From: a virus
Direction: 5' to 3' (one strand)
IMG/VR virus record: IMGVR_UViG_3300043775_000777
Location: 1-26,682 of that record
Length of the DNA stretch: 26,682 nt
Below, piece after piece: positions 1 through 21,300 of this stretch (within the stretch, counting starts at the first letter, position 1; every line of letters starts with the position of its first letter). The position numbers and the translations under genes were made by a program. Under the pieces are notes generated by a model. That model saw only the letters and a list, made by a program, of their open reading frames with translations, did no database searches and had not been told where the DNA came from.

Positions 1-1
1 A

Positions 2-2668
2 TATCAAGATGGTGGAGAATATGGTATGCCTCTGGGTACCGGAGTCTCTCAGAACTTTATTGGTAACAGAGATGAATTCAAAGTAGGTGGTATACCTGAA
101 TTACCATTAAGAGATAATCAAGTCAACTATGATGCATATGTAAACAGGTTTGAGCCTAAGACAAGAATGCAAGATGGTGGAGAACAAGATGCAATGAGTG
201 CTATGATGAAAGCAAGACTTGCTTATGCTAATGAATTTGGTAATCCTGCAGCTCAAAGAATGATTAATCTTCCTGATAATCCATATCAATTTGATGATGG
301 AAATACAGGTACTCATTACATGGCAAGTATGGATAACTATGCTGTACCACAAATACAAGATATAAATGGTCAGTTGATGTTAGGAGACTATGGTCCAGAA
401 TCAAATGAAGCCATAAGATTTGATACAGATGATGATGCTAATTATTTTGCAGAACATTATAAAGATGTTTCTCCAGGTTTTATAGAAGCAGAGCTTACAG
501 ATGATGAAATAGAAGAGTATAGAAAAGGTGGATACATAGTAGAAGATATTTCTATACCTTCATTAAACCAATATGATAAAGGTGGTAGATTTAAAAGAAG
601 AAAAAAGAAACAAGAGGAACAAGAACAGCTAGAGTACAGACCACCTGTAGAAGTTAATGATGAAATGTATGAGTCAGTAACTCCTTTTCCGGAAGCACCA
701 GAAGAATTTAAACAAGGTGTAGGTAACATTAAAGAGATTGAAAAAAAAGCACAAGCTCCGGACTGGTTAAAGTTTTCTAATGAGTATGAAAAGAAAAACT
801 CTAAGCAAGCATTCATTGATGAAAAGAAAAAAGAATATCTTAAAGGAACTAATCAAGGATTGCTTAAAGCTCAGGGTTATAATATGGAAAACTTTCCAGA
901 AGATGTAGAAAGAAACTTTGAGAAAGCATATGACTATAAAAAGAATAGTTTTATAGTTAAGAAACTTGGCAAGAAAGAAAAGTTTTCTCCAAACAGAAGA
1001 GGTGAATGGGTTGATGAGTTAAGTAAAAAAGAAAAAGAAATTGTAGCTAACTCTAAGTATGAAAGCAAACTACAACCAAGTTATTGGTCTAGAACTTTAG
1101 CAGGACTGCAAGAACTTTACGGAGATGTTTATGCACCCGGTGTATCTAGCAGAATACCTATAGCAGGCTTAACTAAAAAAGAACAAAAAGACATTCAAAA
1201 TTCTAAGCTAGGAGCATTTGAAACATTAGCAGGATGGGATGCTCTAGGTGCTGTTGCGGCAAATGCATTAGAAAAATCTGGTAACTCTGGTTATGGTGCA
1301 AGTTATAGACAATCTCCAGGAATATTATCAGGAGAAAAAATGGCAGGTGTTACAGATGAACATGCTATGACATTAAATCTTTTGAATTATACTTTACCAT
1401 ACGATATAGCTGCAGCTGCACCATCAATAATTAAAGGAGTAGGTAATGTAGCTAATGTAACTAAAACAGTAGGTAAAAATCTTATACAAGCTTCCCCTCT
1501 AAAAAAGGCATACAAATATAATCCATGGGCATTTAAAGCTGATAAAGAAGCGGCATACAGAATGCTTGGTGGTAAAGAAGGATATTTAGATGCAGTTGAG
1601 TCAGGTCTTTTAAGACCCAATCAGAAAACTGGAAGATATGATGCTACATTTTATAATGTAGGAGAACCTTTAGATAGATATAAAGCAGGGTATGATACAC
1701 AGTATATGGCTGAAGTACCTTTATCAAATGAGAAAATATATCCAAGATATGAAGGTGCTGATGATTATAGGATATCAGAAGAAATAGGTGCTGAAGCATT
1801 TGACACTAGAGTTCCTAAAGGACATGTGGGTATATATGAACCTGGTGTAAATTTATATAAAGAACATTGGTTACAAGGATATAAGAAAGTTAAACCACCT
1901 AAAGCAACTAAAAAATTAGAAGTTGTTCCTAGTGAAGAAGAATTAATAGATCTTTGGAGAATACAAGAAAAAGGTGACAGACCAATGGCGGAACTTGCTG
2001 CAGAAGGTAAATTGGGACCAATGTTTAAAAATGAAAAAGCTATTCAACATTTTAAAGATAGAGAAAAATATTTTGGACAATGGTTTACAAAAGACAAAGC
2101 AGATTTAGATTGGTACAAAACAGATAGAGAGTTTAAAGATCCAGAAATCATAAACCTAAAAGTTCCTAAAAGCAAACTTGAAGAGTTTCAAAATTATGAT
2201 AAAACATTAAGCAGGGCTTCAGATAGAGAGTTTGTAATTCCTCAGGAAGAACAAGGTTTATACAAAGTAAGTGAAACACCGAAAGAATTACCTGGTTCAA
2301 GTAATAAATCTTTTATGGGTAAAGTAAAAGATTATTTTGATAGACCTCCGGGACCATTAATGCTTGGTATGTCTAAAGGAGCTGTGTTTACTAAAGAAAT
2401 AAAAAACCCAGATTACTTCCTAGACTTAATGAAGATAAACAAGTACAGTGCAAAAAATAAAAAATATTTTGAAGATCTTATAGCTACTGTTAAGAGACAA
2501 GGCAATGTAGCAAGTGAAAGACAATATGATGAGTTGCAAAGACTTAAGACCGGAGACATGAACTATGGTAAGAAAGGTTTTGCCAAAGGAGGTATTGTAT
2601 CTGAGTTATCTAATAAAGAAATAAAAGATCTTGTAGCACAAGGTTATATAGTAAAAGATGTAGACTAA
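2..2668 (+). CDS. Modular phage protein, 5'-truncated by the window; probable virion cargo protein with xxxGG motifs and two ADP-ribosyltransferase-like modules
   Basis: The frame is open from position 2 (YQDGGEYG precedes the ATG at 26), so the true start is probably upstream of the window. TAA at 2666-2668. Contains YQDGG, FKVGG, MQDGG, YRKGG, YDKGG and FAKGG, and the terminal tag ELSNKEIKDLVAQGYIVKDVD. Function is inferred. Confidence 0.8.
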   Translation, partial: YQDGGEYGMPLGTGVSQNFIGNRDEFKVGGIPELPLRDNQVNYDAYVNRFEPKTRMQDGGEQDAMSAMMKARLAYANEFGNPAAQRMINLPDNPYQFDDGNTGTHYMASMDNYAVPQIQDINGQLMLGDYGPESNEAIRFDTDDDANYFAEHYKDVSPGFIEAELTDDEIEEYRKGGYIVEDISIPSLNQYDKGGRFKRRKKKQEEQEQLEYRPPVEVNDEMYESVTPFPEAPEEFKQGVGNIKEIEKKAQAPDWLKFSNEYEKKNSKQAFIDEKKKEYLKGTNQGLLKAQGYNMENFPEDVERNFEKAYDYKKNSFIVKKLGKKEKFSPNRRGEWVDELSKKEKEIVANSKYESKLQPSYWSRTLAGLQELYGDVYAPGVSSRIPIAGLTKKEQKDIQNSKLGAFETLAGWDALGAVAANALEKSGNSGYGASYRQSPGILSGEKMAGVTDEHAMTLNLLNYTLPYDIAAAAPSIIKGVGNVANVTKTVGKNLIQASPLKKAYKYNPWAFKADKEAAYRMLGGKEGYLDAVESGLLRPNQKTGRYDATFYNVGEPLDRYKAGYDTQYMAEVPLSNEKIYPRYEGADDYRISEEIGAEAFDTRVPKGHVGIYEPGVNLYKEHWLQGYKKVKPPKATKKLEVVPSEEELIDLWRIQEKGDRPMAELAAEGKLGPMFKNEKAIQHFKDREKYFGQWFTKDKADLDWYKTDREFKDPEIINLKVPKSKLEEFQNYDKTLSRASDREFVIPQEEQGLYKVSETPKELPGSSNKSFMGKVKDYFDRPPGPLMLGMSKGAVFTKEIKNPDYFLDLMKINKYSAKNKKYFEDLIATVKRQGNVASERQYDELQRLKTGDMNYGKKGFAKGGIVSELSNKEIKDLVAQGYIVKDVD
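1943..2245 (+). other. Putative ADP-ribosyltransferase-fold module within ORF1
   Basis: Order of motifs LWR(1952-1960)...GQWFT(2075-2089)...WY...IINLKVP...REFVIP(2225-2242) matches the ART pattern: strand-1 Arg, aromatic-Thr/Ser strand, late catalytic Glu. Recognised by eye only. Confidence 0.5.
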
Positions 2669-2710
2669 ACTTTATAAGTTTAGCCATTAATTTAAAATTT
2701 AGTATATTTA
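2665..2710 (+). promoter_or_regulatory. Conserved palindrome plus Bacteroidota-like promoter upstream of ORF2
   Basis: CTAAACTT-TAT-AAGTTTAG (perfect 8-bp inverted repeat, 2665-2683). TTTA at 2679-2682, 20-nt spacer, TATATTTA at 2703-2710. Same ungapped layout at 8031-8075. Resembles the Bacteroidota -33 TTTG / -7 TAnnTTTG consensus. Confidence 0.6.
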
Positions 2711-2726
2711 ATATATATCTTAGCAC

Positions 2727-5700
2727 ATGAAGAAAAAAGTAAGAATATATAAGTCTCCAGATGGAAACGGAAAGTATATCAATAAGACTGCACAGTTCTT
2801 AGAAAGAATGGACTATGGTGGTCAACCAAGTGTTGATGAATTAGGTTATCCAGGAGCTGTCCAAGAAACACAAGCGGATCCTGCAGATGAGTTAACTCAA
2901 GTAGTTCTTAAAGACATAAATGATAACTTACCATATGAAGCATCAGTAGCAAAACTTGTTAATGCTTATGACTTAGATCCGGCTGTGGCAAATCAGTTTG
3001 TTCAACAAATATATGCTACTGTAGAATCTCAAGTTGATAAAGAAAAATCTGATGAAACAGAAGCGGAAGAAGAAGCAGAACCAAAAGAAGTAGAAGAAAT
3101 AGGTAATGAAATAGTAAGAGAGAAAAAATCTATGAGTAAAATCAGAGGTAATGCTGATCTTGCTATGGAGGATAGTGGTGAAGATGATGAAGGTTTAGGT
3201 GATGAAGACATGCTGAAGTATGGAGGTATGCCAAGAAAAGATGACGGAGGAGAAGCTGATTATGTTGAAGCAATGAATAATGACCAAACTAGTTGGCCAG
3301 CATCTGAAACTCCTATAGTCATGCCAGATGTATCTGAGTATATACCCTTTGATATGAGTGATTACTTAAGTAATGATGCAGCAGCAATAGCTTGGTCAGA
3401 ACCTACAGATGAAGATATGTCAGTTTCAGAAGATGAATCTGATTATACTGAACCTGTAGTTAATCCTGAAGAATTCAGAATGGGTGGTTTTAAAACTAAG
3501 AAGGGATATGTTAACTCTATTCTTAAATTAGTTAAGAAAGCAAATGGTGGTGACACTGAAGAACAAGACATAAAAGCATCTGATGCAGATCCAAGAGGTG
3601 ATGACTTAAGAAAGAATAGACTTGATGCTTTTGTAGGTGCTGTAAAAAGAGAAGGTAATGCATCAATTGCAAAACAAAAAGCTGAAGAACAGTTTGAAGA
3701 AATGCAAGCCATGCATAACCAAATGATGCAGAATCCAAATCTTCAAAACTTTATACCTGAAGATTATGGTCAAGACTATATGCAGTTTGGTGGTCAGAGA
3801 AGAGCTATGCGTCAACTTAATAGAGCTATGAGAAGAATGCCGGTATTTCCTGGTATGTATGGACCTGTTACTAAATTTGATGTAAGAAGATCTGGTATAT
3901 TTGGTAGACCAAAAGAATACTCTATTGAGTTTGGTCAAAGTCCATTAATGCAATTAGCCGGTAATCCATTTTTATCTCAAGCATATGGTTATGGATACAG
4001 TAAGAAAAAAACTAAAACCCCGGGTAGATTAATTACAGAAACTGTAAGAAACACAGTTAATAATAAATCTACTAAAGATGTAGCTAATGCAACAGGTTCT
4101 GAAGCTGCTAGTAAGTCAGTTAACTGGGATATGGATAATAATACCATTCCTGATGTGATTCAGAAAAATCCTATTCAACCAAAAAAAACTATATTTGATA
4201 GTTGGGTAACTGATCCAAATGCAACAGCTCCGCAACAATTGGCACCAGGTAGCGGTGTATTATTAAATAATTCCATTACACCAAATACTACAGCTTTTAC
4301 AAAGGTAAAAGGACAAACTATGCCTCCTGTATATGATGCATCCCGTATAGCATTCATGAACAAAAATAAAAAGCAACAAGGAGGATTAGTAAACAATCCT
4401 ATGCCTGATCAGTTTGGTAATCTTCAACAGTTTGTATATGGTGGTCTAGATCAATCTGACATAGATGATGTATATTCAAAAGATGTAACAGATCCTTATT
4501 TCCAATATGGCGGTTTAACCAAATATGTAGGAGATGAAGAAGGAAGTGAAACAGATGAAAATACAGATCAATATGAAGACTATAGAAAAAGAGTAGGTGA
4601 TAAACTAGGTATGTCTTTAAGAGATGATCTATCTGCTAAAGAACTATTTGAAATGGGTAATAAAGCAGGTGTAGGTTTTGGTAATACTCCTGCTACTACA
4701 CAAAAGAAAACTACAACTACACAGACTCAACAATATAATCCGTATGCTTCAGCTTATGGGTATAAACCTCAAAGTTTATTTCAAACATATTTTCCAGCAA
4801 ACTTTCCTCAGAGACATCAGTATTTAAAAAAGACTAAAGGAGCCTATAATAAAAATACTGGAGAGATGTTTAAAGGTATACCAGGATTTAATCCGTATGC
4901 TCAAGTTCAAAACATTACAGGAAAAGGAAGAAGATTTAGTGTAACATACAATACTAATCCTACTGGAAAACCTGAAGATAGAAAGTTAGCATTTGCAACA
5001 CCAGGGTCTCAACAGGAACAACAAAAGCAACAAGGTATTGCTAATAAATCTACACAACCTAAAGCAGGCTTTTCAAATACAGCAGGTTTATCTAATAAAG
5101 CTCAAAGACAGATCCGTCAAGGTGAAAGAGAGATGATGAGAAATGAAAGAAAAGTTGCTAGAAATCCTGAAGGTAAAGTTCCATTTATGTTAAATGCTCC
5201 TGGAAAAGTAAATCAAGCAGGACCAACACAAAAACAATATGGTGGTGTTATGGAACCATATTTACCTATAGCATTATACGGAACAGAGTCTCCGGTATCT
5301 ATGGCTGATAGTCCTGTTAATAATGATCTTAGAATGCCTACTAAAAGTTCTAAAGATGTTGGTCAACAGATGATGATGGACAGTAGAAAGAAACTAGAAG
5401 GAGAAGCTAACTATATGCCTGATGAATACACTGAAGATTATAAAGTTAAAAGTAAATGGCTTGGTGATAGACAAGGAGCCCTACTAAGTGCAAATGCTAA
5501 AATAGAAGGATTAGCAGGTGGTATAAATAGATTCAGAAATAGAAATGCTGAAGCTATGATGTATGCTAATACTACAGCTGATAATAACTATACTTCTGAT
5601 CCTAGTACAGATTCTGGTGATTATGATATTAATACAGGTCTTTATAGACCAGATAAACAAGGTCAAACATGGGGAAGCAGATCTGCACAATATGGAGGAA

Positions 5701-5798
5701 CAAGTAATTATTCTGAAGGTGATGAAGTTGAAATGACTGAAGAAGAATTAGAACAATTCCTAGCAAATGGTGGAGAAGTAGAATACTTAAATTATTAA
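2727..5798 (+). CDS. Large low-complexity phage protein (1023 aa), probable virion internal/cargo protein with 12 xxxGG motifs
   Basis: Long ORF; acidic N-terminal half and basic, Gln/Met-rich C-terminal half. Motifs MDYGG, LKYGG, KDDGG, FRMGG, KANGG, MQFGG, KQQGG, FVYGG, FQYGG, KQYGG, AQYGG, LANGG. Terminal tag EMTEEELEQFLANGGEVEYL. No enzyme motif recognised. Confidence 0.8.
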   Translation: MKKKVRIYKSPDGNGKYINKTAQFLERMDYGGQPSVDELGYPGAVQETQADPADELTQVVLKDINDNLPYEASVAKLVNAYDLDPAVANQFVQQIYATVESQVDKEKSDETEAEEEAEPKEVEEIGNEIVREKKSMSKIRGNADLAMEDSGEDDEGLGDEDMLKYGGMPRKDDGGEADYVEAMNNDQTSWPASETPIVMPDVSEYIPFDMSDYLSNDAAAIAWSEPTDEDMSVSEDESDYTEPVVNPEEFRMGGFKTKKGYVNSILKLVKKANGGDTEEQDIKASDADPRGDDLRKNRLDAFVGAVKREGNASIAKQKAEEQFEEMQAMHNQMMQNPNLQNFIPEDYGQDYMQFGGQRRAMRQLNRAMRRMPVFPGMYGPVTKFDVRRSGIFGRPKEYSIEFGQSPLMQLAGNPFLSQAYGYGYSKKKTKTPGRLITETVRNTVNNKSTKDVANATGSEAASKSVNWDMDNNTIPDVIQKNPIQPKKTIFDSWVTDPNATAPQQLAPGSGVLLNNSITPNTTAFTKVKGQTMPPVYDASRIAFMNKNKKQQGGLVNNPMPDQFGNLQQFVYGGLDQSDIDDVYSKDVTDPYFQYGGLTKYVGDEEGSETDENTDQYEDYRKRVGDKLGMSLRDDLSAKELFEMGNKAGVGFGNTPATTQKKTTTTQTQQYNPYASAYGYKPQSLFQTYFPANFPQRHQYLKKTKGAYNKNTGEMFKGIPGFNPYAQVQNITGKGRRFSVTYNTNPTGKPEDRKLAFATPGSQQEQQKQQGIANKSTQPKAGFSNTAGLSNKAQRQIRQGEREMMRNERKVARNPEGKVPFMLNAPGKVNQAGPTQKQYGGVMEPYLPIALYGTESPVSMADSPVNNDLRMPTKSSKDVGQQMMMDSRKKLEGEANYMPDEYTEDYKVKSKWLGDRQGALLSANAKIEGLAGGINRFRNRNAEAMMYANTTADNNYTSDPSTDSGDYDINTGLYRPDKQGQTWGSRSAQYGGTSNYSEGDEVEMTEEELEQFLANGGEVEYLNY

Positions 5799-5801
5799 CC
5801 A

Positions 5802-8033
5802 ATGAGAGTTAAAATAAAAAGATTACCGCAAGCAAGAACTGGATACCAAGTTCAAGGAGCTTTAGTAAATGATGTACCTGCAATGGGTGGGGTTGACTAT
5901 AATGCATATATAGGACAAGAAAGACCTAAAGTTGGAAACACTATCAGTAAAGTACCAAGAAGCAAAGCTAATCTAGAAGCTGAAGGTGGGGAAACTGTAA
6001 TAGGAAATATTGATGGAAGTGGTATGCCGTCATTCTATACTATTACAGGACCAAGACATTCTGATGGTGGTGTACCACTTAATCTTCCGGATGACAGTTT
6101 CATCTATAGTGACACACAGTCAATGAAGATAACTGACCCTACTATTCTTAAGATGTTTAATAAACCAGTTAAGAAAGGCGGATACACTCCGGCAGAGTTA
6201 TCAAAACCATATGACCTAAATAAATTTAGAAAGATACTTCAAGATCCTGAGTCAGATGAAATAGCAAGAAACACAGCTGAGTTAATGATTAAGAACTATA
6301 CTATTAAGTTAGGAGCATTAGCATTAGCACAGGAAGCTAAGAAAGGATTCCCTCAAGGAATTCCTGAAGTTGCAAAACCATATATGGATGCTAATAATAT
6401 TAGCCCAGAACAGATTATGCCTGAACTTGCTGCACAAAAACAACAAGCACAAGAACAAGCTCCAGAAGATGCAGGTCAAGAACCTAACATAGAACCACAG
6501 GCTGAAGAAGATATGGCTGTGATGAATCCTGGAATGTCTGCTGATCAAATGGGTATGCCTCAACAAGATATGATGATGCAGATGGGTGGTATGTTAGAAC
6601 AAGACTATATGTTTCCATACCATCCTACTGAAATGGCTTATGGTGGATATCTTCCTAAAGCTCCAGACGGAGTTACTGTAGAAGGTATTGGAGCTTCTAA
6701 AGTTACTAAGGCTCCAACAGATGAAGGATGGAAACAAGGTAAAGTGGCAGGTGCCGGATCAAAAGCACAAGGTTATTATAGAAGTAGTAGAGGGCAAGGA
6801 GAAAAAGTATCATGGCATTCTGGTAAAGGTAATGCATCAGAAGCATCAGTAGCATCAGGTGTTTGTAAAAAAATCGCTAAATCTGGAGATATTGAAGATG
6901 CTATATTAGGAGCATTTCCTGCTTATCTTAAAGGAAAAAGAAAAGGTGATCCTGGTTATGAAGAAGCAATGCAAGCAGCTGTTGCAAGATTATCTGCTAA
7001 TCCTTTGTATGCAGATTGTATTAAAAAAGCAAATGAAAAATTTGAAAAGAAAGAAGCGGTATATCTAGAACCAGAAGACACAGGCATTGATGAGTGTGAA
7101 TGTACTGATGAAGCTACAATGGAAAAATACACTGTAGGAAAAGATGAAAACGGTAACTGTCTTCCATGTACTTCTACAAAGAAAAGATGTGAATGTCCTG
7201 ATGGATCTGATCCTGGTATGGATGAGGATGGTAATTGTAATGATTGTGAAACTGAAGAAGAAGAAGGTGCTATCACAACACCACCAAAACCAGAAGCTCA
7301 ATGGTGGTTACAAGATACTGTAAATACTATGGGTGCATTTGGTGAACTAATGGGTACTAAAAAATATATGCCTTGGGAAGCAAGAGTTGATCTTGAAGAA
7401 CCAAGACCTACATTCTTAGATCCTAGTAGAGAGCTAGCTAAACAATCTGAGGACGCTAACATTGCTGCACAAGCTAGTGCCCAATTTGCCGGACCACAAG
7501 CTTTAGGTGCTAGACTTTCTGCAATACAAGGACAAGGAGCTGCTGCTGCTGCAAATACCTTATCTAACATTAACAATCAGAATGTCAATATTGCTAATCA
7601 GTTTGAAGCTAATCAAGTTGGTATAAGAAACCAAGAAAATATGCTTAATCAAGCAATGAATGCTAGAGTGTATGATAAAAACACTATTGCTAATCAACAG
7701 TTTGATAATGCTATCAGACAAGGTAGAGCTAACTTAAGACAAGCATATAACACAGCCGTTACTAATAAGTGGAAGACAGATGCATTGAATCAGTTATATC
7801 CTAACTATCAAACTCTTGCTGGCCCTGGAGGTAAAGTAATTTATACTCCAACTGAGAAACAACTTACTCCTGAAAAACCAGGAGCAACTGAAGCAGAATA
7901 CTACAAAGATTTGTTAGCAGCTGGATTGAAAGAAGATGTAGCAGGTAAATTAGTAATAGATAAGTTTAAGTCTAAAAAAGGCGGAAATGTTCAAAGAGGT
8001 TACATATATACTGATTGGCCAATCTTCCTATAA
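5802..8033 (+). CDS. Phage virion-associated protein (743 aa) with an EAEGGE...GPxHxxGG domain, a Cys-rich repeat and an Asn/Gln-rich helical C-terminus
   Basis: ORF starts 3 nt after the ORF2 stop. ANLEAEGGETV...GPRHSDGGVPLNLPDDSFIYSD (5967-6113) resembles a motif set I recognise from Bacteroidota phage structural proteins. Cys repeat at 7095-7247 and 11-residue N/Q repeat at 7572-7736. Confidence 0.8.
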   Translation: MRVKIKRLPQARTGYQVQGALVNDVPAMGGVDYNAYIGQERPKVGNTISKVPRSKANLEAEGGETVIGNIDGSGMPSFYTITGPRHSDGGVPLNLPDDSFIYSDTQSMKITDPTILKMFNKPVKKGGYTPAELSKPYDLNKFRKILQDPESDEIARNTAELMIKNYTIKLGALALAQEAKKGFPQGIPEVAKPYMDANNISPEQIMPELAAQKQQAQEQAPEDAGQEPNIEPQAEEDMAVMNPGMSADQMGMPQQDMMMQMGGMLEQDYMFPYHPTEMAYGGYLPKAPDGVTVEGIGASKVTKAPTDEGWKQGKVAGAGSKAQGYYRSSRGQGEKVSWHSGKGNASEASVASGVCKKIAKSGDIEDAILGAFPAYLKGKRKGDPGYEEAMQAAVARLSANPLYADCIKKANEKFEKKEAVYLEPEDTGIDECECTDEATMEKYTVGKDENGNCLPCTSTKKRCECPDGSDPGMDEDGNCNDCETEEEEGAITTPPKPEAQWWLQDTVNTMGAFGELMGTKKYMPWEARVDLEEPRPTFLDPSRELAKQSEDANIAAQASAQFAGPQALGARLSAIQGQGAAAAANTLSNINNQNVNIANQFEANQVGIRNQENMLNQAMNARVYDKNTIANQQFDNAIRQGRANLRQAYNTAVTNKWKTDALNQLYPNYQTLAGPGGKVIYTPTEKQLTPEKPGATEAEYYKDLLAAGLKEDVAGKLVIDKFKSKKGGNVQRGYIYTDWPIFL
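7095..7247 (+). repeat. Two tandem Cys-rich peptide repeats, CEC-x(n)-G-x-DE(N/D)GNC-xx-C
   Basis: CECTDEATMEKYTVGKDENGNCLPC (7095-7169) and CECPDGSDPGMDEDGNCNDC (7188-7247), read directly from the translation. Confidence 0.85.
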
Positions 8034-8095: not shown

Positions 8096-11000
8096 ATGGC
8101 TACGTATCTACAAGGAGTCACAGATTATATACCACAGTTTCAACCCTTTCAACCGGATCTGAACTTTTATGCTAATGTAATGCAGACAAAGCAGACTCAG
8201 TATGATACAAACTGGAAGGCTTTAAACAAAATGTATAGTCAGTATTATTATGCTGACTTAACAAGAGATGGTAATATAAAAAAGAAAGATGAGTATTTAA
8301 ATAACATTGAGTTTAACCTTAAGAGAGTATCTCAATTAGATTTGTCACTTGAACAAAATGTTGCTCAAGCTACACAAGTATTCAAGCCTTTTTATGAAGA
8401 TAAAGGTTTGATGAAAGACATGGCTTGGACTAAAAACTATAACAACCAACTTAACCGTGCTGAGATATTCAGAAATTCAAATGAAACTGAACAAAGAACA
8501 CAATATTGGGAAGAGGGCGTTAGAGGAATGAACTATCTAAGAGATGAGTTTAAAGAAGCAACAGATGAAGATGCAATGGGTTTTCAAAATGCTGAGTATG
8601 TACCTAATGTAGATGTATTAGGTAAAGCAGAAAAGATTGCTAAAGACTCAGGTTTATCTATTGAAAAAGTAGATTTTAGTGATGGTGGTAAGTTTATTGT
8701 TAAAACCAAAAATGGTGAAGCACTTACTGAACCTTTACAAAAGTTATTTGAAGCTAGATTAGGTAGTGATCCGTCTATTCAATCTAAATATAAAATGCAA
8801 GCATATGTAGATAGAAAAGACTATGCTTATTCTAATGCTGCACAGTTTGGCGGAGACAAGAATGCTGCAGAAATGAAGTATCTTGAGAACAGTTTTAATG
8901 TGCTCAAAGCACAGAGTGATGCAAGATATAAACAACTTCAAGTTAACTCTTCTGTTTATGATAATCAAATAAAAGATATTCAAAAACAAATTGATAATGG
9001 TACTGCATCTCCTACAGCAAAGATGATGCTAGAGCAGTACAAAATGAATAAGGATATCAATGATAAAGTTTTGGCAAGAGCTGAGAATGAAAACAAAATG
9101 CTCAATGATGGTAAAAATAAAACTCCTTTAACTTCAACAGGGTTTACAAATCCTTATGGAGATCTTAAGTCATTAAGATATAAAGTAGATAATGGTATGG
9201 CATCATTACTTATGCAGAAAGATCTTGATGAAGCAGCTAATATCTATGCATATAGAGATATGGAAATAGATGTAGAAGCTAATCCATATAAGATCTTAGA
9301 AGAAAAGCAAAGAAATAGCATGCAGCTTATAGCAGCAAGAGAAGCTGCATCAATGAGATTAGCTGAATTCAAAAGCAATCTTCAAAAACAAAAAGACTAT
9401 GAAGATAATATCATAGAAAATGGTGCCGGCTACAGAGATGAAAAAGGTAACATACAGTTGTATGAAGATCAAAACATAGTAACCACTGAAGAAGAAAAGT
9501 CAGGAGGTGTTACTGGTTCTATTAACTTTAAAAATAAGAGCCGTGATATTTCTCAAATGACTAAGCAAGAGTTTCTTGATCCTTACTTCCAATCAACATT
9601 TGCTGTATTAGATCAAGCTATTGCTGATAAAAAAATGAGCAAACAAGAGGCTGGTAAAATACTTGGGTATAATAAAAATCAAGGTATATCTCTTGATGAC
9701 TTTATTAAGAAGTATAACACATATGGTGACTCTTGGTTAAGAAAACAAGTAGGGTCTAAAGGAGTTAGAGAAATCAGAAACAAAATGAATGAATGGATAG
9801 GTAATAACAGAGATCTAGATTTATTTACACAGAATGGTGAGAAGACGGCTCTATACAAAACTTATAGAGAGGCTAATATGAAGATGAATGACTATATGTT
9901 ATATATTAAATCAGATGAAAAATGGAAAAAAGAAACTTCTAAGTCTGTAATTACTGATCTTACTAGACAAGGTTATGATAAAGCTAAGTATTTGTATGAT
10001 GATAACGGCAATAAGAGAACTGAAAAAGAATACATAAGAGCTCTTCTTGATAATAAAGCAATTTCAAAAGATGAAATGGCAGAGTATATTGCTCAAGAAA
10101 AAATTCAAAAAGGAGAAGCTGGGTATAAAGCAGCTGTAGAATTAATTGGAATGAATGATTATTGGACTGCAAAAGGTGCACAGTTCCTTGATGTATTAGA
10201 CAGAGTAAATAAATTTTTAAAACCAATTGCGGCACCTAAACAATATATAGCTGAAAAAATATACGGAGTAGCTACTACACCATCAGTTAATTTTGATTAT
10301 GATGAATTAGTAAAAGCTGCAGGTAAAGCTTATTCAACTGAAAAAGTTATTAAAACACCACCTCCAAGAATCCCTGGAGGACCAACTGGATCTGGTACAG
10401 GTTTATTTGCAACAGGCTCATCAAGAATAACAGTTAATCCAAAAGTACATGGTGTTGGTTATGCACATTTTGCTGATGTAAGTAATGACTTAAAAACTTT
10501 TGGAATGGATAACATGGACAGAGTATCATTTTATGGTATCTCTAAAGATATGTATGATAAGTCTGGAAATAAACATAATGATGTTGGTAAAGCGGCATTA
10601 GATAAAATCCGTGAGGATATGCAGAAGAAAAAATCTTCTCTTGGAGCTTTTGAACTTAAAGTGTCTCCTATTGCTGGAGGTTCTGATAGAATGGCTGCAG
10701 TAAGAATAATACCAAATCTTGAATGGATTAAAGCTAATACAGCTAAGTTAAATTCAAAAGGAGGTATATCTGAACCTGGATTGTTTACACCAAATGAAGC
10801 AGCAGCAATTGCTAAACATGGTATTACATATTTTATGAATAATAAAAAGATGAATAGTAATATGTATAAGCAATCTTATCAATCACCAATGGAAAGTTAT
10901 GTTGAAACATTTGGTAAGTATGAATTAAATAGTATTGGTGGGGATCCAATGAAATCTTTTAAAGTAGAAAAGAATACATTAGGAACCGGTGACTATATTA

Positions 11001-11188
11001 CTACTGTTACCTATCCTTTATTTAATCCTGATACAGGTAAGTTAGAAAAACAAGTATATAGAAATAATGTAGGATTTACTGGTCAAAATCTAGAAAATTT
11101 AAGAGATGGAATGATCTATAACTTTATGGATGATGCGGATATACAGAATACATTACAGTATAATAACTTTGAAAACCTAGGTCAATAA
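8096..11188 (+). CDS. Phage protein (1030 aa), probable virion cargo/ejection protein of the crAss-like type
   Basis: Long ORF. The N-terminus MATYLQGVTDYIPQFQPFQPDLNFYANVMQTKQTQYD resembles proteins I recall preceding the giant genes in crAss-like phages. Largely helical/coiled-coil composition. The stop overlaps the next start (TAATG, 11186-11190). Confidence 0.75.
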   Translation: MATYLQGVTDYIPQFQPFQPDLNFYANVMQTKQTQYDTNWKALNKMYSQYYYADLTRDGNIKKKDEYLNNIEFNLKRVSQLDLSLEQNVAQATQVFKPFYEDKGLMKDMAWTKNYNNQLNRAEIFRNSNETEQRTQYWEEGVRGMNYLRDEFKEATDEDAMGFQNAEYVPNVDVLGKAEKIAKDSGLSIEKVDFSDGGKFIVKTKNGEALTEPLQKLFEARLGSDPSIQSKYKMQAYVDRKDYAYSNAAQFGGDKNAAEMKYLENSFNVLKAQSDARYKQLQVNSSVYDNQIKDIQKQIDNGTASPTAKMMLEQYKMNKDINDKVLARAENENKMLNDGKNKTPLTSTGFTNPYGDLKSLRYKVDNGMASLLMQKDLDEAANIYAYRDMEIDVEANPYKILEEKQRNSMQLIAAREAASMRLAEFKSNLQKQKDYEDNIIENGAGYRDEKGNIQLYEDQNIVTTEEEKSGGVTGSINFKNKSRDISQMTKQEFLDPYFQSTFAVLDQAIADKKMSKQEAGKILGYNKNQGISLDDFIKKYNTYGDSWLRKQVGSKGVREIRNKMNEWIGNNRDLDLFTQNGEKTALYKTYREANMKMNDYMLYIKSDEKWKKETSKSVITDLTRQGYDKAKYLYDDNGNKRTEKEYIRALLDNKAISKDEMAEYIAQEKIQKGEAGYKAAVELIGMNDYWTAKGAQFLDVLDRVNKFLKPIAAPKQYIAEKIYGVATTPSVNFDYDELVKAAGKAYSTEKVIKTPPPRIPGGPTGSGTGLFATGSSRITVNPKVHGVGYAHFADVSNDLKTFGMDNMDRVSFYGISKDMYDKSGNKHNDVGKAALDKIREDMQKKKSSLGAFELKVSPIAGGSDRMAAVRIIPNLEWIKANTAKLNSKGGISEPGLFTPNEAAAIAKHGITYFMNNKKMNSNMYKQSYQSPMESYVETFGKYELNSIGGDPMKSFKVEKNTLGTGDYITTVTYPLFNPDTGKLEKQVYRNNVGFTGQNLENLRDGMIYNFMDDADIQNTLQYNNFENLGQ

Positions 11189-14100: not shown

Positions 14101-17100
14101 AACCCAGCGGAGTTCATGGAGTCTGCAAGAAGAAATGCTGAAGTAGCAAGAAAGTTCTATGACAGAAGAATAAAATACTTTGAAGATCTTGTTGCATCTG
14201 AGATGGGTAAAGTAAGAGATAATGCTCTATTGAATAAACTAGCTGATAATCAGTTGTATTTGAACAGAGAGGACATGGAGAATTATCTTGGAGACAAGAA
14301 CATCCCACCTTCTGAAATATATGACGGTAAAACTAAACAGATATACCCAGAAGGTAGTGAAGAATATAAGAAAATCTATGCAGAATACTTTGAGAAAAGA
14401 GCTGAGTTAAAGTCTCAACTAAAGCCTAAAAAGACTAATGTTGTTAAGAAAGACTATGAAGATAAGATCAATGAGTTAAAGCAAAAAATGCAAGATGAGA
14501 TTGATGCTTTACCAAAAGAAACTGTTAAAGAATATGGTGAAGACATTAAGAGAAAAGGTAAAAACAAATCTGTTAAAATTCAAGAGATTGCTGAGCAACT
14601 CCAACCGGAAGAGTATGTAGAAGTTGACTATAAAGATGCTATTGAACCAATGGTGTTTTATAAAGATGCTGCTGGTGAATTAAGATATGATAATGCTGAA
14701 GGTGATATAGTAGAAATACCTACAATCAAAACTAAATTTACAGAAGCTAAGAAGTTTACATATACTGAAAAAGCTGATGAAGCTGAGGTAAAAAAGATTC
14801 AGGATAGATATGAAGCAAGAATAGCAGAAGTAATGGATGCATATAATGCAGACATGCAAGATATAGAAACAGAAGAACCGTATGAAGAAGTAACACAGGA
14901 CTCAGACTTAACAGAGTATGCGGACTTTAGAAACATGCTATATTCTGAATTCTTAAAATATGTAGACACATTACCGCAAGAAGAGCAGGATGCTATCTAT
15001 GCAGATGATAATGTTACAGATGCAGAGTTTGAGAAATGGTATAGGCTTCCGGAAAATAAAAAATACTTTGACCAGTACAATAAAGAAAACAAACCTACCG
15101 GTCCAAAGAACAATGTAGTATTTACATTTGAAGGAACAGATATAGATACTAAAGATCTAAGTCTACCTGAAATAATAAAATACCGGGATAACATTAATAA
15201 TAAGATCAACAATATAAACAGTCAGTTAGAAACTGAGCAAGAGTTTCCGGATGATGAAGACCCGGATGTTATAGCAGATCTTAAAAAGCAGAAAAGAGCT
15301 TTAATGACAGATGTTAGAAATCTTAATGCTGTGATTAGCCGTAGACAATTTGAAGGTTTTCCTGCTGAAATAAAAGAAGCAGTTCAGAAGATTCAGATTC
15401 TTATTGAGAAACAAAAAGGTGTAGAAGAAAACTATTTACTTACTGAAGATGACCCGGTAACTGGTCTTAAAAAAGGAGAGACGGCTTATAGAATTAACAA
15501 GCTTATCCATAGAAGGGTAACTAATGCTATACAAGAAGTATTAGGTAAAGACTATGAATACCAAGGTAAGACACAAGTTGAGTCTGCATTTAATAATACT
15601 ATTGGTGTTAATGGTTTAAATCAAGATTCTATAAATGATTTTATATCACAGCTAAATGCACTACTAGAAATTAATAAACTTCCGGGTGCTAATGCTTTGT
15701 TTCTTGAAAAACTTACAGATCAATTAAGAGCTTTAGATGGTCTTACTCCTGAGCAAATTAAACTTGAAAAACAAAAAGATGTTTTACTTGACAAGTTAGA
15801 TGCAAAAGACAGAGATATTATTAAAGCTGAAGAAAATAACCTACCTGAAAGAGTAAACAATCTAGTAGCTCAAAAGAATGAAATACTTAAAGAACTAGCA
15901 GCTGTTGAGAAACAAATCAAAGGTGCTACAGCTCCTACAACTACTTCTACAACTACACCTGATATAAAAGCTAAAATAGCTGATATAGAAAAAAGAAGAA
16001 AAGAATCTATAATTTCATTTATTAAAAGTAGACCTAGAGTAAAACTTTCATCAAATGATGAAATTATTAAAGCTAAAGAAGAGTTAAGTAAACAAACTAC
16101 TGAAATTAACGATCAATATGATGCAGAGTATTTAGAAGCTGTTAAAAAAGGAGAAATACCTAAAGAAATGGCTATGAGTGCTATTTCAAGTGCAGATGGT
16201 TTAAACAGAAAAGCTTATAAAGAACTAGCTGCTTTAGGACAACAACCTGCTCAACCTGTTCAAGAAACTACAGCTAAAGAAGAAACTACTAGTCATAACA
16301 CTACAAAAGATATTGTTCTAAAGATGTTTGCTGAAGAAACATATCAAGATAGTAGAGATGCTGGTAACTTCTTAGATGATGCCAAAGATTATTTAGAGTC
16401 TGGTATTAAACCAAAGTTTGATGAGAGTAAAATATCTCAAGATGCCTATGATAACTTATTTGGTCCCGCAGGTTTCTTAACTGGTATAAAACAAAGAGTA
16501 GATGCCGGTGAGTTTTACTTAATTGGTAGAGGTCTTGTTGTTTATGATTCTGATATTACTAGACCTGACGGAACCAAAGACAGGATAGCAGGGGAGATTG
16601 ACTTATTATTAGCTACTAAAGATGGTATAATGATAGTGGATATCAAGTCTGGTGAGATGAGAAAGTGGACTAACTTTAACCAACTTAGTAAGGCTGAAGA
16701 TAAAAGAAACTATTCTAAAAGAGAAGAGTATACATTACAGCAAGGAGCTTATGCTACTATGTTAGAAAAAATGATAGACTATCCAGTATCAGGAATTGCT
16801 CTACTTGCTATTGAAAGAAGCTCAGACAAACAGACTAATGCAATGGTATCAGCAGGGAAACCTTCTGGAATGAGTATCTATTATGATCAAACATACCAAA
16901 AGAATCCTGATGGTACTTATAAGAGAAATCAATTTGGTGAACTAATATCTAAAGCTGCCCAAACTAAATTTTCAGATTGGATGGTTCCTTTGTATAGAGA
17001 AACTGTACAGGATAAGTTAGATATATTGTTTCCTCCCGGAGCTGTTAAATTTATGCCTGGTCTTAAAGAAAAAGCAATTAAAGAGTTTAATAATTATCTA

Positions 17101-18392: not shown

Positions 18393-21300
18393 ATGAGTAT
18401 AACATGTGCCCTTTCTGATTCTCAGATTGAAAAACTATTTAAACTAACATATAAAAGAATGAAAGATTCATTAGACTCAGATACTGAGTTTGATGCTGAA
18501 GATTTCATGAAAGATTTGTTTAATAAAATTGCTGGTAAACAAGATGCAGAAACTGCAGCTAAGTTTATTCAGCATGTTCCGGCCATGGTTTATGCATTGT
18601 CTGCTAAATCTGCTTTTAAAAACTTAGATTTTAAAGATACATTAAATGAGTCTGCTATTAAAAAATTAAGTAGACAGTTTAAATCAGATACAGGGATCAG
18701 TGATGTTGTTAGTAGATATCAAGTAAAGCCAGATGTTTTACCCGGTAAGGTTGAAAGAGAAGCTGATAATGCTAATAAGATAGAGCTTAATCAAATTCCA
18801 ATACCAGAAGAACCAGTAACTGTAATTGAGTCAGATAGATTTAAAACATTAAGTCCTTGGGGAGGAACTCTTCAGAATTATATTAAGATTAATCCTAATA
18901 AAAAATCTGATGGTTCTGTAGTAATTGAAGAAATTAATCCAGAGAAAGCTCATATTATAAAGACTTTTGAAAACATAAAACAAATACAAGCCATGAGTGA
19001 CCTCACTGATGGTATTATTTATGAAGGTAAAAAGTTAATGTTCCGTGCAGAAAATTTAGATTTATTTGCCAGAGGTGAAAACCTAGACATGCTTGATAAA
19101 GAAACTAGAGATGAGATAGCTGCTTCTAGAACAATTATCAATAATAAATCTAAAGTTGATCCTGCAATTGCACAAGTAAATCAAAGAGTTATACTTGTTC
19201 TTACTGATGAGTTTGGTAATAATATCTATGTAGATAATGAAGGTAAGATAACTGATAAAGAGACTGGAAAGTTAGTATACCAGTTCATGAGAACTGTAAG
19301 AAAACAAGGTAATAAATATACTGTAAAAGACATCTATAATCAAGAAGATCAAGTTCTTTCTCCAGAAGAGTTTGCAAGAATGACTTACAATCCAGAAATA
19401 GATGGAACAAAGAGAGAGTACTTTGATAAAGTTGTAGCAGAGCAACAAAAGCAGATGAAAGAGTTGTATGACCTACAACAGAAAGCATTAAAGAATGAAG
19501 CAAAGTTATTACCGGTTACAGGTATTACTACAGGTATATCATCTAATTTAAGTTCAACAAGAATTTTATTAAATGAACTTACAAAGTTTCCTGGTATAAC
19601 TGCTGATGTTTATAGCACAATTGAAACTGCACCAAGAGATACAGCTACACTAAGAAAAGGTGAAGCCACAATTGAGATTAACGGAAACACTTTTGCAATT
19701 GACAGACCAAGAATAACAAAAGATATTGCAGATGAAGTGGCTTCAGTATTAACTAATCCTAATATTCCTTTAGCAGCTAAAAAAGGTTTTGTAGATCAGT
19801 TTTTACCAAGTTCCTTAGATATCCAAGGTTCTGCCAAAAAGTATAAATTTAGTTTTGATAAAGATTTAAAATACTTATACTTTAATGAGTATAAAGATTT
19901 TAAATTTAAAAACCCTGTAGATGAGAAAGGAAAATTATTAACAGATACTAATTTAAAAAAACTATCTGCTGAAGAAGTTAAAAACATTAAAGATAGAATA
20001 GTAAATGTTTTAATGAATGGTGGAATTAAGAATAATATAGAAGGTCAATCAAATGCTGTATTCATGTCATATGATAGCAGCAAGTTTAATAAAAACTACC
20101 AAAGACTATCTGAAGATGGTTCAAGATTCATTGATAAATCATATAATGAATTCTTAAGTACTTTACCAGCTGAAATAAAAATTATAAATGCAGACCCCGG
20201 ATTCTATAACTATTCAGTTAGTTACACTACTCCTGATAGCACATTAGGTAAAGTAATTGAATCTAACACAAGACAATTAAGCTTTGATGAAGAGTTAGCA
20301 TTAGAGGCTGAGAAACTTAAAAATGATCCGGCTACTATAGAATCTAATAGAATTATAAATCAAGCTAATAGTGAAGCTTGGAGACTTCTTGTTGAGTCAG
20401 ATCCAACCGTTAAAGTAAAACCTGTATCAGAACCAGTATTAATTGTATCATATTTAAGAAATCAGATTGCTACAAATCCAACATATACAAAAGAGTTTGT
20501 TACAAAAGTATTTGATAACATACTTGGAGCTTATTGGAGACAAATTGGAGATGCTCAATCTAAACTTATTAATGATGAGATTAACAAAAGATTTCCAGAA
20601 CCTATTAATTCTAAGGAACTTACTAATGCAGAAACATTACAAATCTTAACTGAACCAGGTGCACCAGCTCCTGAAAGTACAGATTCTGCAGTAAGTGAAA
20701 TATTTAAATCAAATGGTAAGATAGACTTAGATTCTATACCAGGTTCATTTGATAGAAAAGGATTTGACAAAGAAAGAATAAATCCTCTTAAAGTTTTACG
20801 GGCTAAGAAGTGGTGGAACAGTGAAGAGATTAAACCTTTAAGAGACCTTATCTCATTTGAGCATGCAGCTAATCTTGTTAACTCAGATGTGTTTGCAACA
20901 TTTATAGTTAATGCTGCATATATAGCTGATACAAATGATAAAATGGGTACTATTAAAGTGAATAAGCTTAATGGTTCATTTTACCAAAATCTTACTGCAT
21001 ACCATGAGGCGTGGCATGTTTTCTCTCAGTTGTTCTTAACTAAGGAACAAAAGATTGATCTATATACAGAGCTTCAAAATTATACTGATGCTAATGGTAA
21101 TCAACCTTATGCAAATAAAAAGTTTAGAGAACTAGAAGAAATGCTAGCTGAAGACTTTAGAAATTATGTTAAGTCCGGTAAAGCAAAAGAAAATGCTCCA
21201 AAAAGAAATACAATCTTTAGACAAATACTAAACTTCTTAAAACAACTATTTGGCAAGTACCTTAATAAGTTTAAGAAAAAAGATATTCAGTTAGATAGCC

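Follow-up and report, generated by a model that had tools for sequence, protein, structure and literature searches.

Internal proteins of T4, phiKZ, and adenovirus are cut at short degenerate codes. The prohead proteases T4 gp21, phiKZ gp175, and SPN3US gp245 cut after glutamate and also process the capsid protein or the scaffold. The adenovirus protease, with the code (M/L/I)xGG, and pS273R of African swine fever virus (ASFV) process core proteins at di-glycine. For cargo protein 1 (gp45) of Bacteroides phage crAss001, the main text of a cryo-electron microscopy (cryo-EM) study reports two resolved pieces, residues 214–245 in the tail and residues 425–552 on the portal, 420 Å apart (PMC10172136). 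The locus described here occupies the first 26,682 nt (the window) of the 115,433-base virus record IMGVR_UViG_3300043775_000777, which is the genome of a crAss-like (Crassvirales-like) phage. Three consecutive genes in the window (ORF1–3), at the gene position held by the cargo genes gp45–gp50 in crAss001, carry a repeated motif of the form [MFY]-[QKAR]-x-G-G. As judged from sequence comparison, this motif is real, conserved, restricted to internal proteins (cargo-type and small basic ones), and a marker of module boundaries. We favor the reading that it is a maturation cleavage code of cargo-type proteins, which would be cut after loading into the head, and hold this reading at an even balance.

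Distribution and conservation of the di-glycine motif

The genes compared are as follows.
2..2668, + strand: ORF1, the 3' portion of a modular, hypervariable gene of cargo type whose frame runs off the contig edge; motifs at 2, 77, 167, 572, and 2579, and the one at 518 inside an acidic tag
2727..5798, + strand: ORF2, 1023 amino acids (aa), with the basic tag KKKVRIYK at the N terminus, some 12 sites of GG type, and alternating acidic and basic segments of 20–244 aa
5802..8033, + strand: ORF3, 743 aa; motifs at 6576, 6633, and 7971
8096..11188, + strand: ORF4, a motif-poor neighbor used as control; the equivalent of crAss001 gp46 by position only

All 21 di-glycine sites listed in a preliminary description of this sequence translate as given there. 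Two of them, LANGG (5760) and YRKGG (518), were reassigned to another tag, an acidic and longer one in which they form the helix cap, and the rest of the list stood. The enrichment over shuffled sequences that the description had proposed to examine was present: [MFYK]xxGG occurs 17 times in ORF1–3 versus 4.0 expected, a count reached in 0 of 2,000 per-protein shuffles. The narrower [MFY]xxGG occurs 13 times versus 2.4 expected, again with 0 of 2,000 shuffles as high (ORF1, 6 versus 0.7; ORF2, 5 versus 0.9), and bare GG is barely raised (28 versus 20.0 expected; 65 of 2,000 shuffles). ORF4 has one [MFY]xxGG site versus 0.6 expected, and the motif is scarce in the giant ORFs, as had been noted (ORF5–7, 1 versus 2.5 expected).

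Because the pattern was picked after the window had been viewed, the fair test is out of sample. For this purpose, 45 of 67 loci were kept, dereplicated at 80% ORF3 identity and with the near-twin L004 dropped. The motif is maintained in these homologues, with 537 sites versus 102 expected over the three gene positions (ORF1, 147 versus 24.4; ORF2, 257 versus 46.4; ORF3, 133 versus 30.9). Negative-control genes of the same 45 loci gave 38 versus 28.7 for the muzzle (shuffle maximum 39), 13 versus 19.7 for ORF4, and 22 versus 31.8 for ORF5/6. In addition, 148 further representatives of the ORF3 family hold 449 sites versus 105.5, with at least one motif in 145 of the 148. Homologues share sites by descent and these counts overstate independent events; the same-locus negative controls are the stronger point. 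Apparent enrichment in the portal (60 versus 14.8) and the capsid protein (54 versus 33.3) was set aside, as it stems from roughly a single site in each protein that is conserved between closely related phages.

Across the 45 loci, the motif profile has M/F/Y at −3 (3–4-fold enriched), Q/K/A/R at −2, and often Y at −1, followed after GG by a loose preference for Y/F and then V/T/I. Single-Gly variants are common (AQxG, 63; AAxG, 30) and occur in basic or proline context. Beyond ORF1–3, the motif recurs in the small genes g084 and g097–g102 outside the window (11 versus 0.8 expected). Between the homologues of g096 and g103 in 56 loci, small genes hold 290 sites versus 31.4; their composition is 23.5% Lys+Arg, and 124 of 351 proteins have a site. 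Homologues of the scaffold-like g094 have none (0 versus 5.2 expected). The small Lys/Arg-rich genes behind the capsid gene likely encode internal head proteins. In the present genome, this cluster (G000:C1:92435-96301 for g097–g102; 80002-80226 for g084) includes DUF5872, DUF6321, and K-M-K-x-G-G arrays.

These small proteins bear on a different explanation, namely that the motif is an uncut multivalent binding tag. It would form a beta-turn (hydrophobic-x-x-G-G-x-hydrophobic) on the scaffold, on the SH3-like wing loops of the portal, or on the C1-type domain of ORF3 described below, and would gather internal proteins into the prohead core. The tandem arrays in small disordered basic proteins (six sites in the 141-aa g100) and the mild hydrophobic preference at +1/+2 after GG are what such a tag may be expected to produce. 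However, the largest cargo proteins (ORF4–7; gp46 and gp49) are packaged without the motif. We regard the binding tag as doubtful, although it retains appreciable weight.

Exchangeable modules and terminal tags

The features at module and gene ends are as follows.
182..532, + strand: 117-aa acidic module (segment 61–177) between MQDGG (167) and YRKGG (518), missing from the variant copy g114 (blastp); the indel runs from GG to GG
2594..2665, + strand: C-terminal tag of ORF1, of the EL-S/T-xxEI...G-Y-x-V-E type, straight after FAKGG
5715..5795, + strand: acidic C-terminal tag of ORF2, which includes LANGG and is missing in natural ORF2–ORF3 fusions
5802..5843, + strand: basic tag at the N terminus of ORF3, with the single-Gly variant LPQARTG after it

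The preliminary description had proposed that the motifs separate distinct segments, and both indels and homology-block ends bear this out by falling on the motif. Internal block ends lie near a motif in 92 of 244 cases at the ORF1 position (38%), 28 of 99 at the ORF2 position (28%), and 154 of 924 at the ORF3 position (17%), versus a background of 4–8%, with the peak at the second Gly. Block starts also lie near the motif at the ORF1 and ORF2 positions. Homologues at the ORF1 position range from 179 to 2428 aa in length, and an HExxH module is present in 14 ORF1- or ORF2-position proteins of relatives.

ORF1 is cut off by the contig edge, with its frame open from nt 2. The gene is present in a second, variant form, g114 (112,756 to the contig end), which has 470 extra N-terminal residues and shares 85–93% DNA identity with ORF1 in the two best blocks and 70% in a third. 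The contig ends are thus two variants of the same gene, which is longer than ORF1 and is represented there by its 3' part only. Probably, the record represents a circular genome that was closed by joining two strain variants (window 1-1530 and G000:C1:114167-115433; 70–93% DNA identity), and its ends have 31 identical bases in common, from the YQDGG codons onward.

The placement of indels and block ends on the motif, together with the shared 31 bases at the contig ends, may also be explained by a mere flexible joint or unfolding break point that is kept for DNA micro-homology in module swaps and involves no protein recognition. The main text of PMC10172136 adds that cargo passes constrictions under 50 Å and has to unfold, which would suit such a joint. 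However, the codons of the motif glycines differ between copies (ggt, gga, and ggc), and because of this variation the conservation is at the protein level. Moreover, a linker has no need of Met/Phe/Tyr at −3 or Gln/Lys/Ala at −2, and sites are also found after short leaders, before short tails, and throughout proteins without folded modules. This explanation is unlikely.

The genes are further related by their terminal tags, which are acidic at the C-termini of ORF1 and ORF2 and basic at the N-termini of ORF2 and ORF3. Both tag-pattern filters are passed by 31 of 44 ORF2/ORF3 pairs, and most of the others show the tags by eye. A profile search located the ORF3 domain far inside 14 listed proteins. 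Among 10 of these that were checked, eight begin with an ORF2-type N terminus, and none has either tag pattern at the junction, where GG-type words are found instead; as the strict acidic-tag pattern catches just 13 of 44 ordinary ORF2 ends, these junctions were also judged by eye. The missing tags fit a head-to-tail docking of ORF2 and ORF3, and in natural fusions the motif takes the place of the gene boundary. A resemblance of the acidic tag to a double-glycine bacteriocin leader was ruled out, since the tag is C-terminal.

Proposed cargo processing, the ORF3 domain, and candidate proteases

The favored reading can be stated as a series of steps. ORF1 and ORF2 would be brought into the head by an acidic C-terminal tag that clips to the basic tag at the start of the protein that follows. 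The motif, which marks the ends of exchangeable modules, would then be recognized by a maturation protease, and the proteins would be split into their modules inside the head. The cut may lie at or between the glycines, because the first Gly is retained in single-Gly variants (A-Q-x-G). By such cutting, the proteins would shed their basic leaders and tails, small domains would be freed to leave through the narrow tail, and the Lys-rich proteins would yield short peptides that bind DNA. The motif DNA could double as a swap point, because each new module brings its own site.

The protein gp45 has about eight motif-like sites (FDTGG, FSAYGG, AFAEGG, KAFGG, AKDGG, NAFGG, MFAYGG, and KAKGG), and gp46 has no [MFY]-type motif. 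The strict [MFY] pattern occurs in gp45 only 3 times versus 1.2 expected (36 of 300 shuffles), because the gp45 variant favors Ala at −2. Counts in gp45 homologues are 5 versus 0.9 in DAC15, 4 versus 1.0 in Dulem virus 41, 3 versus 0.7 in cr128, and 2 versus 0.2 in phi14:2. The commonest natural deletion in gp45 removes residues 266–375, from GG to GG, in 61 of 120 variants. Other deletions span residues 261–329 in three variants and a stretch from residue 563 in two, and these five have a motif at their start or end; another 36 or so indel events among the 120 variants lie away from motifs. Both gp45 pieces resolved in PMC10172136 sit between motifs. Of the tryptic peptides of gp45 1–424, 0 of the 5 motif-spanning ones are cited in the text of that study versus 5 of the 12 motif-free ones, a difference that is weak at the level of a Fisher test. 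The words "cleav" and "protease" do not occur in its main text, and the motif is not described there.

Further evidence was obtained from MALDI (matrix-assisted laser desorption/ionization) peak lists of 13 gel bands of crAss001 virions (PMC6235969, supplement 8), which were matched again to 26 crAss001 proteins. In these lists, 12 of the 13 bands were identified, with the band order by mass inferred from the protein identities. Bands 5–8 correspond to gp20 (93.0 kDa), gp26 (96.9 kDa), gp22 (92.3 kDa), and gp25 (86.5 kDa), with 10–23 peaks each. The 90.8-kDa gp45, of which cryo-EM places 12 copies of the portal-bound segment in the virion, has no calibrated match in bands 5–8 and a single chance-level match in band 11. 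Arg-ending peptides were seen for 5 of 13 in gp20, 15 of 42 in gp47, and 23 of 31 in gp49, and gp45 offers 16. For gp47, gp49, and gp50, the bands were of large size and the peptides were spread along the protein. These band data favor the conclusion that gp45 is not intact in virions, and neither a cut nor its position is thereby shown. The missing 91-kDa band is left unexplained by a binding tag. Of note, the main text of PMC10172136 reports residues 425–428 of gp45 within ordered density on the portal, as a bound tag may require, and it describes no recurring peptide density along the inner wall of the capsid. The second option of the preliminary description, in which the motif docks on the capsid interior, is unsupported here.

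ORF3 provides a structural link to gp45.
5934..6416, + strand: domain with a predicted fold that resembles the compact portal-binding domain of gp45 (crAss001 cargo protein 1), except that two segments have traded places

Residues ~50–200 of ORF3 have a confident predicted fold, with a predicted local distance difference test (pLDDT) score of 88–96 per block of ten residues, and the earlier characterization of these proteins as disordered does not extend to this region. The best whole-domain structural match is 7qog_M, the portal-bound piece of gp45 (Foldseek rank 2, E 1.4; VIA Z 5.4, root-mean-square deviation 5.2, 100 aligned residues). BFVD matches are predicted structural proteins of crAss-like phages (E down to 4e-5), the atlas match of the domain to PF25725 is 0.93, and profile–profile comparison with the gp45 domain gave E 0.003. 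PF25725 itself has no match to ORF3 or elsewhere in the genome at E<=10 (gp45 scores 2e-66), and direct BLASTP between ORF3 and gp45 is not significant. The lines of evidence from fold, atlas, profile, and gene position are each weak but agree, and the ORF3 domain is predicted to be of the gp45 type (C1-type) and to bind the portal as in gp45. Packaging would be explained by this predicted portal-binding domain and not by motif docking. The motif flanks are unpacked on the domain in two single-chain models (pLDDT below 50), which also speaks against a binding tag; the second, of gp45 405–569 and made to see its flanking motifs, is a poor model (mean pLDDT 54).

Within the domain, the EAExGE segment precedes the G-x-x-H segment, and the order is reversed in gp45. 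Every one of the 148 representatives has E59, E61, E64, H86, and S103, and the corresponding His, Glu, and Ser are likewise kept in all 20 gp45-type sequences. The ORF3-domain family comprises 1,830 clusters at 50% identity. In some relatives, the domain lies at the C terminus of the ORF3 homologue, a permutation of modules (L053:11288-11944 and L046:10955-11611; P0466, P0483, P0484, and P0489). ORF3 also includes a Cys-rich repeat, C-E-C-x-D-G ... D-E-x-G-N-C, at aa ~430–490 (window 7050-7270).

Several points weigh against maturation cleavage. No cut was observed, and the authors of PMC10172136 read the two locations of gp45 as one uncut chain threaded through the portal. The portal piece 425–552 begins with A425-F426, ahead of G427-G428, and would imply an intact site in the virion unless the two residues absent from the deposited chain (7QOG M, which has 126 residues and not 128) are those ones. 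No gp45 fragment was found in any of the 13 gel bands, where only visible bands were excised and faint ones may have been missed. The motif-free gp46 (60.2 kDa) was also not identified, with only seven weak peaks in band 10, and a control is therefore missing. As for the motif itself, ORF3 of this genome alone is not significantly enriched (2 versus 0.6; 245 of 2,000 shuffles), the residue directly after GG is very variable, Pro included, among the 148 representatives, and ORF3 block starts lie away from motifs (3 of 570). Furthermore, local alignments tend to stop at any short conserved word, and non-motif GG is also in excess at block ends (0.17 versus 0.087). Pfam and PHROGs searches covering about 105 of the 114 ORFs, many of which match nothing, revealed no assemblin, Ulp1/adenain, or other maturation protease family, so the Ulp1/adenain-like or prohead protease sought elsewhere in the genome was not found among the scanned ORFs; this result is in line with an uncut binding tag. 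Finally, a wide fold search with the C1-type domain returned helical-bundle matches and no protease among the best 50 of 48,161 representatives, and absence is not proven by this. The processing at GG that had been suggested has only indirect support, from the lack of intact gp45 in the re-matched bands.

The protease could be an HExxH zincin in ORF6, a host enzyme, or the C1-type domain, in which His, Glu, and Ser are invariant.
21003..21017, + strand: HExxH zincin-type motif in giant ORF6 (aa 871), candidate protease; the only HExxH in the predicted virion proteins of the genome

A look-alike of the ORF6 motif is present in crAss001 gp47, and HExxH also occurs in g015 and g065. The peptidase-type matches in the genome are a cell-wall peptidase, a metallopeptidase linked to MoxR/VWA, and ClpS. 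The gp33 homologue g096, beside the capsid gene, was dropped as a candidate: its atlas matches are without names, the gp33 alignment covers residues 123–321 only, and its invariant His47 and Cys53 lie outside the aligned part.

Alternatively, cutting might be delayed until ejection is over, when a peptidase from the host or one ejected along with the cargo would release effector modules in the cell. The HExxH modules swapped into the 14 ORF1- or ORF2-position proteins of relatives would suit this timing, and post-injection autoproteolysis by zincin MPTase domains has been proposed for polyvalent proteins (PMC5512222, main text). However, cutting after ejection predicts intact gp45 in virions, of which the gel-band spectra showed none, and it gives no reason for sites in the small basic proteins of the head module. 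We consider it very improbable.

Maturation cleavage may also be cast in a wider form, which we regard as decidedly speculative. In that form, a Gly-Gly maturation code would be common to crAss-like phages and maybe also to tape measures of siphophages, lambda gpH among them; the portal-bound C1-type domain would be a protease of new fold that cuts a head-to-tail modular cargo chain into ejectable pieces; and the tail and head segments of gp45 would be separate peptides. The published ejection model rests on gp45 as one chain spanning head and tail. A Gly-Gly cleavage code, if real, would mean precisely placed new termini in a phage that can be cultured, and it would explain the free swapping of injected modules in crAss-like phages, which are the dominant gut phages.

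Genome setting and comparison with known systems

Outside the window, the genome encodes a crAss-type major capsid protein (PF23898, E 2e-31), a portal (PHROG portal 6547, E 4e-89), and a terminase (PHROG 6681, E 3e-54). Two ring proteins and the muzzle (g111–g113; PF25702, PF24228, and PF25731) lie upstream of the cargo genes, and ORF1–3 follow the muzzle around the circle, ahead of ORF4 and three giant ORFs. The size and position of the giant ORFs suit virion RNA polymerase subunits, and no RNA polymerase family match was found for them in Pfam or PHROGs. ORF1–4 have no match in PHROGs or Pfam, sequence searches of the PDB gave only nanobody or chance matches, and tblastn of the ORF3 domain against GenBank phages gave no match.

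Other features of the genome include a weak PD-(D/E)XK nuclease match in giant ORF5 (aa 1774–1916; window 16500-16940, E 0.002) and an AlkB-like 2OG-Fe(II) oxygenase domain toward the C terminus of ORF6 (4611 aa), beyond the window (L003:4556-5194, E 1e-10). Two parts of an N-degron pathway are present, an arginyl-tRNA-protein transferase-like ATE_C (E 9e-8) and a ClpS adaptor (E 4e-13) (L074:5269-5940 and L073:11547-11843). A MoxR-type AAA ATPase adjoins a VWA/metallopeptidase gene (DUF2201; L003:17105-19586). Small genes that look like GIY-YIG by eye occur among the cargo genes of two relatives (L048:9015 and L066:7222). The closest GenBank capsid match belongs to the phage Lbo-JY46 (L071; PP438436.1), whose recorded host, the cyanobacterium Leptolyngbya boryana, is unusual for a crAss-like layout. 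This phage has the same gene order, with ORF3-like N-terminal and ORF2-like C-terminal tags, and weak motif enrichment (2 versus 0.4 in one gene).

A full-text literature search, with subscription papers outside its reach, returned no paper on the motif or on virion or cargo protein processing in crAss-like phages. The nearest described system is gp45 (PDB 7QOG chain M; Pfam PF25725; PMC10172136), which likewise lies directly after the muzzle gene and has a similar motif and a basic leader. However, crAss001 has one gene where three are found here, putatively chained by terminal tags, and the gp45 domain differs in the order of its two segments and in that PF25725 does not match ORF3. The polyvalent proteins with zincin MPTase domains (PMC5512222) are also modular, hypervariable, and injected, as compared with the HExxH modules in ORF1-position relatives and ORF6. 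They differ in that no shared junction motif is given for them, and the word "glycine" occurs 0 times in the main text of that paper.

Lambda gpH loses about 14 kDa from its C terminus in a glycine-rich region, with both site and enzyme given as unknown in the accessible part of PMC12617516. It is also an ejected protein, and FATGG (733) and YATGG (778) bracket a small domain in it. A cut at FATGG would give 12.2–12.7 kDa, and several upstream plain GG sites fit 14 kDa better. Homology between the bracketed domain and the C1-type domain is unsupported (hhalign E 0.11–0.18, with profiles of 4 and 6 sequences), and the likeness to gpH is an analogy only.

With the prohead-protease codes of T4, phiKZ, and SPN3US, the present motif shares a short degenerate form and an occurrence in internal or ejected proteins, often after a leader and sometimes many times per protein. 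Unlike those codes, it ends in Gly and is missing from the scaffold-like g094, and the ORFs scanned gave no match to an assemblin-fold protease. With adenovirus and ASFV, it shares a Gly-Gly code, a hydrophobic residue upstream, and basic core proteins among the likely substrates. In contrast, the hydrophobic residue lies three positions before the first Gly here and two in (M/L/I)xGG, Pfam revealed no Ulp1/adenain-family gene, and the host is bacterial. By analogy, the putative code works like T4 or adenovirus core processing and is a member of neither family.

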